In this document: positions 57,636-58,823 of the stretch, in pieces
Layout of the letters: every line of letters begins with the position of its first letter
Position numbering within the stretch: the first letter of the stretch is position 1
Assembly (NCBI RefSeq): GCF_003334305.1
Contig: NZ_QOWS01000014.1
Origin: Escherichia coli
GTDB taxonomy: Bacteria; Pseudomonadota; Gammaproteobacteria; Enterobacterales; Enterobacteriaceae
DNA: 64,000 nucleotides
Strand: one strand, 5' to 3'
Position numbers and translations under genes: made by a program
Notes under the pieces: generated by a model
Database searches by the model: none
Told to the model about the DNA's origin: nothing
What the model saw: only the letters and a program-made list of their open reading frames with translations

Positions 57636-58103
57636 CGCCCGCAGCCATCACTGACCGCGGGCGAAAGTGTAAAGCAGGTGCCTTACCACTCTGACCTGAC
57701 AACCGGATATGCGGGGATTGCTCCCCGCACAACGGCTACTTCTTCGGTTCGTAAGCGAGAACAGCCTTAAACTCAATATTACGTTCCTTTACGGTGAACT
57801 CACACAGCGAGTCTCCGACCAGAAGCGTAAATCCCAGTACCGTCAAACACAGCACTATGACTGCCACAAGGGCATATTTCGTCAGCATGTTTATATTGCC
57901 TCCATGCGAAGAAGGGACTACCATCCGAGTTGTTGAGGCTCGGAGTGGCAGCCCCAGGATTGATAGAAATATCTCCTGGGGCTTCATCTTTCCAGACCTC
58001 AGAGTTAACCTGAAACCGGAAAGCTTCAGGCACCCGCCGTTATCTTACCCTTCCTCAACAAAATAGCTGTTTATTTATACAGTGAATCCTGTTTCGGACT
58101 TCT
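57636..58103 (-). other. hokE: hok/sok-type type I toxin-antitoxin locus, copy 1 (hok, mok region, antisense sok and fold-back elements)
   Basis: 468-bp unit with a terminal hairpin CGCCCGC-N13-GCGGGCG at 57636-57663, a Hok CDS and an upstream mok-like region; repeated 503 bp downstream. Confidence 0.8.
57736..57888 (-). CDS. hokE: Hok-family membrane toxin (50 aa), copy 1
   Basis: [50 protein letters not shown] preceded by GGAGG; in this copy an upstream ATG (57987) is in frame, giving an 83-aa ORF. Confidence 0.85.
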
Positions 58104-58238
58104 GTCGGCAAAACTCATCATTGCTCTTAAAACGAAATCGCCCGCAGCCATCACTGACCGCGGGCGAAAGTGTAAAGCAGGTGCCTTACCATCCTGACCT
58201 GACAACCGGATATGCGGGGATTGCTCCCCGCACAACGG

Positions 58239-58391
58239 CTACTTCTTCGGTTCGTAAGCGAGAACAACCTTAAACTCAATATTACGTTCCTTTACGGTGA
58301 ACTCACACAGCGAATCCCCGACCAGAAGCGTAAATCCCAGCACCGTTAAACACAGCACTATGACTGCCGCAAGGGCATATTTCGTCAGCAT
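58239..58391 (-). CDS. hokE: Hok-family membrane toxin (50 aa), copy 2
   Basis: [50 protein letters not shown]; two amino-acid differences from copy 1 (V8A, A42V). Confidence 0.85.
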
Positions 58392-58491
58392 GTTTATATT
58401 GCCTCCATGCGAAGAAGGGACTACCATCCAAATTGTTCAGGTTTGGGTAGGTAGCCCCAGGGTTGATAGAAATATCGTCCTGGGGCTTCAT
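58303..58491 (-). CDS. Mok-like overlapping reading frame (modulator of hok translation), copy 2
   Basis: 62-aa ATG-initiated frame [12 protein letters not shown]... that overlaps hok copy 2 out of frame, the canonical mok/hok arrangement. Confidence 0.5.
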
Positions 58492-58823
58492 CTTTCCAGA
58501 CCTCAGAGTAAACCTGAAACCGGAAAGCTTCAGGCACCCGCAGTTATCTTACCCTTGCTTAGCAAAATAGCTGTTTATTTATACAGTAAGTCCTGTTTCG
58601 GACTTCTCACTCCCCATTTGATCAACTGAAGCTGAACCCGTTTTTTTCTGCATGCCTCAATCGTCAAAATTCTTCGCCACCAGCCAGCCGTGCCATAACT
58701 TGTCACATTGCAAAAGTAGCCAAATTGCTTCAGTCACCATCACCAAAAAAAGAAACATTCCAGAACTTCCGCATCTCGCCCAGCCGCTCCGACTTCTATA
58801 CTGAATAGAAAACGCCAACTTAA

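Follow-up and report, generated by a model that had tools for sequence, protein, structure and literature searches.

The hok/sok locus (parB) of plasmid R1 is the paradigm of the Hok family among toxin–antitoxin systems of type I. It combines a toxin with the Hok/Gef domain, an mRNA leader of the type modelled by Rfam RF01794, a fold-back of the 5′ end of the mRNA onto its 3′ end, a mok start upstream of hok, and a cis-antisense RNA, Sok, whose promoter overlaps the Shine–Dalgarno region of hok. The hokE/sokE loci described here share the toxin domain, the leader and the fold-back, and have a mok-type start and a putative Sok with a putative promoter at the corresponding places. Unlike hok/sok of R1, however, these loci are chromosomal, have a LexA-box-like site upstream, and have a variable mok frame, which in one of the two copies (copy A) is in frame with hok; furthermore, plasmid-stabilisation activity is not expected of them. 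Chromosomal hok loci are described as being without post-segregational killing by Pedersen and Gerdes (1999), as that work is cited in bioRxiv 10.1101/2025.08.07.668861.

Tandem repetition is a recognised property of type I loci (Fozo 2010, PMC2887945). In the ldrABC, ibs/sib and zorO/zorP loci and in hok islets, as in the locus described here, modules of the same family lie head to tail in one intergenic region, although ldrABC, ibs/sib and zorO/zorP mostly belong to toxin families other than that of hokE. A hok islet has been defined as at least two hok genes of the same cluster less than 2 kb apart; 10% of hok genes, and 13.5% of the chromosomal hok genes of Escherichia, are in islets, which comprise 2–6 copies and arose from local duplication (bioRxiv 10.1101/2025.08.07.668861). 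The authors of that survey state that Mok, Sok and the mRNA elements were left unanalysed.

The closest described relatives are hok-2.1 and hok-2.2 of the adherent-invasive E. coli (AIEC) strain NRG857c, a duplication of hokE 504 bp apart and free of insertion sequences (PMC7232551), and the loci annotated by PGAP as “hokE (x2)” in O157:H7, ST131 and other strains. These are the same tandem at the same locus, with the same 504-bp distance and likewise IS-free, and the differences between them and the locus described here are allelic only (the haplotype of the Sok tail and the class of mok frame at each position). The hokE/sokE locus of K-12 (b4415, b4835) shares the site, the Sok region, the LexA box and the folds, but consists of one unit carrying IS186B, whereas here there are two intact units and no IS. 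Thus, the tandem hokE arrangement brought forward in a preliminary description of this DNA is correct but already known, and is an ordinary, common allele.

The entD–ybdK interval

The DNA analysed (the window, a stretch of 64 kb) includes entD (56994..57614, plus strand) and ybdK (58833..59951, plus strand), both identified as open reading frames (ORFs) and annotated by PGAP in an identical locus (L001). With high confidence, the interval between them contains two tandem, complete copies of the hokE/sokE type I toxin–antitoxin module, in an IS-free two-copy allele which is common in E. coli and related Escherichia. The units are on the minus strand, collinear and about 469 bp long: unit A, proximal to entD, at 57635..58103, and unit B, proximal to ybdK, at 58138..58607. 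The entD stop is 20 nt from the 3′ hairpin of unit A. On the other side of entD, between fepA and entD (56829-56935), there is a REP-like element, for which ES036 (RF02751) scored above its gathering score and naRNA4 was sub-threshold.

The duplication had been proposed from a reading of the letters alone, and was confirmed by a repeat search and by MAFFT alignment. The repeat search gave direct repeats at 57635-57934/58138-58437 (300 nt, 97% identity, spacing 503) and at 57974-58103/58478-58607 (130 nt, 95% identity, spacing 504). The two units and their period of 503/504 had been described correctly; their starts, at 57635 and 58138, had been placed one position off, and the spacer between them is 34 nt rather than 35 nt long. 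In the pairwise alignment that had been suggested as a check, the units are homologous over their full length, with 25 substitutions and a single 1-nt indel between them in 469 nt. Read as reverse complements, their homology starts at AGAAGTCCGAAACAGG and stops just past the hairpin ...GCGGGCGA. Tandem Repeats Finder reported no repeat on the array, likely because the period is slightly above its 500-nt limit, and its result is no argument against the repeat.

The 34-nt spacer (58104..58137, unstranded) is present in tandem arrays only, and contributes the T-run of the hok-B terminator. By alignment, it is not homologous to the units and matches neither flank of the array, while in other Escherichia arrays it is 81–97% conserved. 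A simple junction-less tandem duplication was therefore rejected as the origin of the array.

Each unit encodes, as had been described, a 50-aa Hok preceded by GGAGG, with two residue changes between the copies, which are V8A and A42V. The hokE-A coding sequence (57736..57888, minus strand; PGAP hokE, WP_000956465.1) specifies the commonest HokE variant, found in 37 of 64 sampled units, and matches Pfam HOK_GEF (PF01848, E = 1.1e-7). The hokE-B coding sequence (58239..58391, minus strand; PGAP hokE, WP_000956456.1) has A8 and V42 relative to copy A. HokE of K-12, which has served as a toxic control (bioRxiv 10.1101/2025.08.07.668861), differs from copy A by one residue and from copy B by one residue. 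The NCBIfam models for HokA and for the Hok family match the HokE proteins, but below their curated cut-offs, and NCBIfam has no HokE-specific model. With coding sequence starts 503 bp apart and proteins 96% identical, the pair constitutes a hok islet as defined above.

Distribution of the array and the K-12 allele

The unit–spacer–unit junction, counted with a 151-nt query at a coverage of at least 80%, was found in 2,503 of 5,426 complete E. coli genomes (~46%). Among the loci fetched, two PGAP annotations of hokE are seen in O157:H7, ST131-type strains, a strain that matches the window exactly, and others. Single-copy IS-free alleles exist as well. The survey of alleles that had been suggested shows that one-copy, two-copy and IS186-bearing alleles all exist among E. 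coli genomes. In a scan of species representatives, E. whittamii, Escherichia sp. MOD1-EC7003 and a divergent “E. coli” genome had an array with a recognisable spacer, and E. albertii and Escherichia sp. E1V33 had single units. A scan of metagenomes returned 41 contigs, nine of which have two full units.

These occurrences bear on whether the tandem could be an artefact of assembly, i.e., an expanded repeat. Repeats carry a general assembly risk, which is all that speaks for an artefact here, whereas the two copies differ at 26 positions, an identical 1.6-kb sequence (100%) recurs in a number of genomes that were closed independently of one another (H1-H3), and the junction recurs across thousands of complete genomes, other species and metagenomes. 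An artefact is therefore excluded for practical purposes, its probability being negligible. The same recurrence indicates that the arrangement is, as judged by sequence comparison, old: the suggestion that the duplication is not recent agrees with the presence of the array, with the same spacer, in the O157:H7 and ST131 phylogroups, in E. whittamii and in other Escherichia.

The hokE unit is more similar between genomes than its neighbour is. In E. albertii (L016), E. whittamii (L018) and a further locus (L017), the unit is 92–95% identical to that of the window where entD is only 83–91% identical. Such high identity in a largely non-coding unit suggests that the RNA unit as a whole is strongly constrained or that it is exchanged by recombination. 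In the ST131-type loci L008 (positions 1-3000) and L009 (positions 1-4000), the entD-proximal side of the array is abutted by an island (a sugar ABC transporter and two SDR oxidoreductases), which separates the array from entD and occupies the place that entD has in the window.

At this site, K-12 MG1655 has only one hokE unit, ~96% identical to those of the window. Its IS186B is in the loop of a GC hairpin, between GCGGGGAG and CAATCCCCGC, 19 nt past the hokE stop. The preliminary description had stated, correctly, that K-12 carries IS186 at this locus. The element does not, however, take the place of a second copy: it interrupts the 3′ UTR of the sole copy. Insertion and copy number are independent, as shown by genomes that combine two copies with an insertion at that point (H25, L039). 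The presence of the K-12-type IS186 junction in 1,874 of the 5,426 complete genomes suggests either a hot spot for insertion or the spread of a single ancient insertion. Units are also interrupted by IS150, in L009 and L011. The corresponding GC hairpin of the window, GCGGGGAGCAATCCCCGC, directly follows the hokE-A stop (57711..57728, minus strand). A hairpin of the form GGGG-N6-CCCC follows each hokE stop (57711-57728 and 58214-58231), and another is found at L002 2490-2520. Both GC hairpins of the window are intact; consistent with the earlier claim that no IS186 lies between entD and ybdK, the IS186 terminal repeat was absent throughout the 64 kb with three mismatches allowed.

These repeated hits by IS186 and IS150 could be taken as a sign that one or both copies are inactive relics, i.e., decaying selfish elements, the array being kept by neutral duplication and gene conversion. 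Such decay would also accord with the reduction of many genomes to one copy, with the instability of the mok frame across alleles, and with cited literature in which chromosomal hok loci are reported to lack post-segregational killing activity and the copies of K-12 to be inactivated. However, the 50-aa hok ORF is kept in 64 of 65 sampled units, with a rough pN/pS of ~0.34; the regulatory elements are all invariant in the aligned units; the pairing of the leader hairpin is kept by compensatory changes; the unit, as noted above, is more similar between species (92–95%) than entD (83–86%); and other strains show transcription, editing and SOS induction of hokE (for SOS induction, PMC11125564). 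That the copies are relics is thus considered quite improbable. Retention of the ORF, invariant boxes and compensatory pairs argue against simple decay, and suggest that both copies are under selection.

With two complete modules as the preferred reading of the interval, the state of K-12, i.e., one hokE disrupted by IS186, is unrepresentative of the species: nearly half of complete E. coli genomes have two intact, apparently SOS-controlled modules. This bears on research into SOS-induced persistence and type I toxins that relies on K-12.

Regulatory elements of the units

The mechanism proposed for each unit is taken from homology to hok/sok of plasmid R1 and hokE/sokE of K-12; the observations on the units themselves are of the sequence elements, of how far these are conserved and of how the RNAs are predicted to fold. 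From each unit, a hok mRNA of ~400 nt would be transcribed from a weak promoter which is overlapped by a LexA box and would, as a result, be SOS-inducible. The full-length mRNA would be translationally inert, with its 5′ end paired with an element near the 3′ end (fbi). Slow trimming of the 3′ end would free the leader, whereupon translation from the mok start would open the hok ribosome-binding site. Sok, a short and unstable RNA transcribed in the opposite direction from a stronger promoter, would pair with the region of the mok start and block translation. The product, Hok, would be a membrane toxin of 50 aa. By analogy with these systems, both units would be transcribed, processed, toxic and under SOS control.

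A motif search identified a LexA-box-like site upstream of hok-A (58065..58084, minus strand; core CTGT-N8-ACAG at 58067-58082) and another upstream of hok-B (58569..58588, minus strand; core at 58571-58586). The sequence is exactly CTGTATAAATAAACAG in each unit, ~30–50 nt upstream of the presumed +1; these are the two matches in the window, where none was expected, and the site is invariant in the aligned units. In the literature, hokE is cited among the SOS genes that have a Lex box (PMC2826370), and in strain EDL933 hokE is up-regulated after ciprofloxacin (PMC11125564). As there is such a site in each unit, SOS control would extend to two hokE promoters in a strain with two copies.

The leader of the hok-A mRNA (57880..58035, minus strand) extends from a putative +1 at 58035 to just beyond the hok ATG and matches Rfam RF01794 with 86.5 bits; that of hok-B (58383..58539, minus strand) matches with 86.2 bits. 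The gathering score of this model is 59, and both leaders match it over its full length on the hok strand. RF01794 is named “sok antitoxin”, but matches the hok-sense strand over 157 nt and not the 60-nt antisense Sok, so that its name misleads the assignment of strand. Because the match is on the hok strand and covers the stretch between the presumed +1 and a point shortly after the hok ATG, RF01794 is in effect a model of the hok leader.

In the minimum free energy fold of the full-length hok-A mRNA (z = -9.1), an fbi-like element, AGGCACCU (57676..57683, minus strand), pairs with the 5′ end, GGGUGCCU (58028-58035). This 8-bp helix closes the folds of both mRNAs (z = -7.0 for unit B), with partners ~350 nt apart, a fold-back of the kind that is characteristic of hok mRNAs. 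The helix is kept in all of 15 units from nine genomes analysed with RNAalifold. No compensatory pair was found in the full-length fold of these 15 units, because the units are too similar; as the helix is invariant, covariation is uninformative about it either way. In the Rfam-type leader hairpin, there are two compensatory pairs. Unit A and the entD-proximal unit of O157:H7 have G-C at both, whereas 12 others have A-U. Both pairs are broken in one unit only, which is probably recombinant.

A hairpin at the 3′ end of each unit had also been described, and is found in both. The hairpin of hok-A (57635..57664, minus strand), identified as an inverted repeat and in the folds, abuts entD and has no T-run. 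The hairpin of hok-B (58138..58167, minus strand) is followed by TTTCGTTTTA and, in a sequence scan, resembles an intrinsic terminator. Thus, a T-run follows the 3′ hairpin of hok-B only, where it is supplied by the spacer.

Sok-A (57932..57991, plus strand) is a putative RNA assigned by homology to K-12 sokE (b4835), by alignment and by its fold, and Sok-B (58435..58495, plus strand) is assigned, likewise putatively, by homology and fold. Both are collinear with the annotated sokE of K-12 and both fold into a terminator-like hairpin with a U-rich tail, hairpin and U-rich tail being conserved, and a free, single-stranded 5′ tail. The putative promoter of Sok-A (57896..57924, plus strand) has the form TTGCCT-17 nt-TACCAT, and its −35 box overlaps the hok Shine–Dalgarno sequence. 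The same arrangement is upstream of both Sok RNAs and is invariant in all aligned units, but scores below the threshold of the consensus scan. As the sigma-70 consensus scan gave no promoter at threshold, promoters were assigned by eye and by homology.

Mok frames and Sok tails within arrays

The differences between the units of the window had been called scattered. They are indeed substitutions and a 1-nt indel, but they are unevenly placed: nine of the 26 are in 60 nt that overlap Sok and seven of the 26 in the 24-nt 5′ tail of Sok, which corresponds to a binomial P of ~3e-4 in a test that was post hoc. Between Sok-A and Sok-B, the tail differs at 7 of 19 positions, and among hokE alleles in general this recognition tail falls into discrete haplotypes.

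The 1-nt indel is just after the mok-type ATG (ATGAAGCCCCAGGA...), which is at 57985-57987 in unit A and at 58489-58491 in unit B. In unit A, this ATG opens an ORF of 83 aa (57736..57987, minus strand) that continues in frame into hokE-A as a Mok–Hok fusion frame, a departure from the overlapping-frame model of R1. In unit B, the mok ORF is of 62 aa (58303..58491, minus strand), in the +1 frame, and overlaps hok by 89 nt, which is the canonical arrangement. A survey of 65 units, from the window and loci L003-L061, revealed three classes of mok frame, with two units unclassified. The +1 overlapping class comprises 25 units; the ORF is of 62 aa in all but one of these, where it is of 84 aa. The in-frame class, with the 83-aa ORF, comprises 20 units and is the state of K-12, E. 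albertii and E. whittamii. The third class, of 18 units, to which the ybdK-proximal unit of O157:H7 belongs, for example, has an upstream ORF of 22 aa, which ends 29 nt before the hok ATG. No description of this trimorphism or of the Sok-tail haplotypes was found in the literature, where the search for “mokE” returned no relevant paper and Faridani 2006 has nothing specific on hokE.

Such differences invite the view that the copies are diversified paralogues, in which each Sok prefers its own hok mRNA and the coupling of the leader to hok differs, giving two independently regulated SOS-inducible toxins. The concentration of differences in the Sok tail is in keeping with this, as are the predicted tail–target duplexes, which are stronger for cognate pairs (-41 and -35 kcal/mol) than for non-cognate pairs (-17 and -20 kcal/mol), and the different mok frames of units A and B, arrays of two different classes being 14 of the 19 arrays surveyed. 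However, the clustering in the tail was tested post hoc. Most of the changes in the tail are transitions, which still permit G-U pairing, and the other ~40 nt of Sok are nearly identical; cross-repression is therefore likely. Nor are mixed pairs enriched, since arrays of the same class make up 5 of the 19 when about six would be expected at random. Furthermore, L021, L038 and L042 have identical Sok regions and mok frames. On balance, it is unlikely that the two copies are separately regulated in this way.

The first nine arrays, from complete genomes and with six distinct combinations of types, were all mixed; the metagenome scan then gave L021, L038 and L042, which are homotypic. Obligate heterotypy, by which every array would pair two different types of Sok tail or mok frame and which would imply selection for copies that do not cross-react, was rejected, the proportion of same-class arrays being close to chance.

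Returning to two complete modules as such, in some arrays the Sok regions, or even the whole units, are identical, and the divergence within arrays ranges from 0 to 26 differences, with the array of the window at the divergent end. This range indicates gene conversion. The suggestion in the preliminary description that tandem loci could provide redundant or differentially regulated toxins remains speculation: the differences in Sok tail and mok frame could fit it, but arrays whose copies are identical there exist. The polymorphism of the hokE leader could matter if copies that differ in mok frame and Sok tail acted as two separately titrated SOS-inducible toxins, one of them an N-terminally extended Hok made from a Sok-controlled start, although this is regarded as something of a long shot. 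The polymorphism of the mok frame and the haplotypes of the Sok tail offer minor leads to those who specialise in how hok/sok is regulated.

On the plus strand, two ORFs are antisense to the hok leaders, at 58297-58629 and 57794-58066. The ORF over unit B is annotated by PGAP as “hypothetical protein” in an identical genome, and elsewhere is often flagged as frameshifted or incomplete. This ORF has no match in NCBIfam and is probably spurious.
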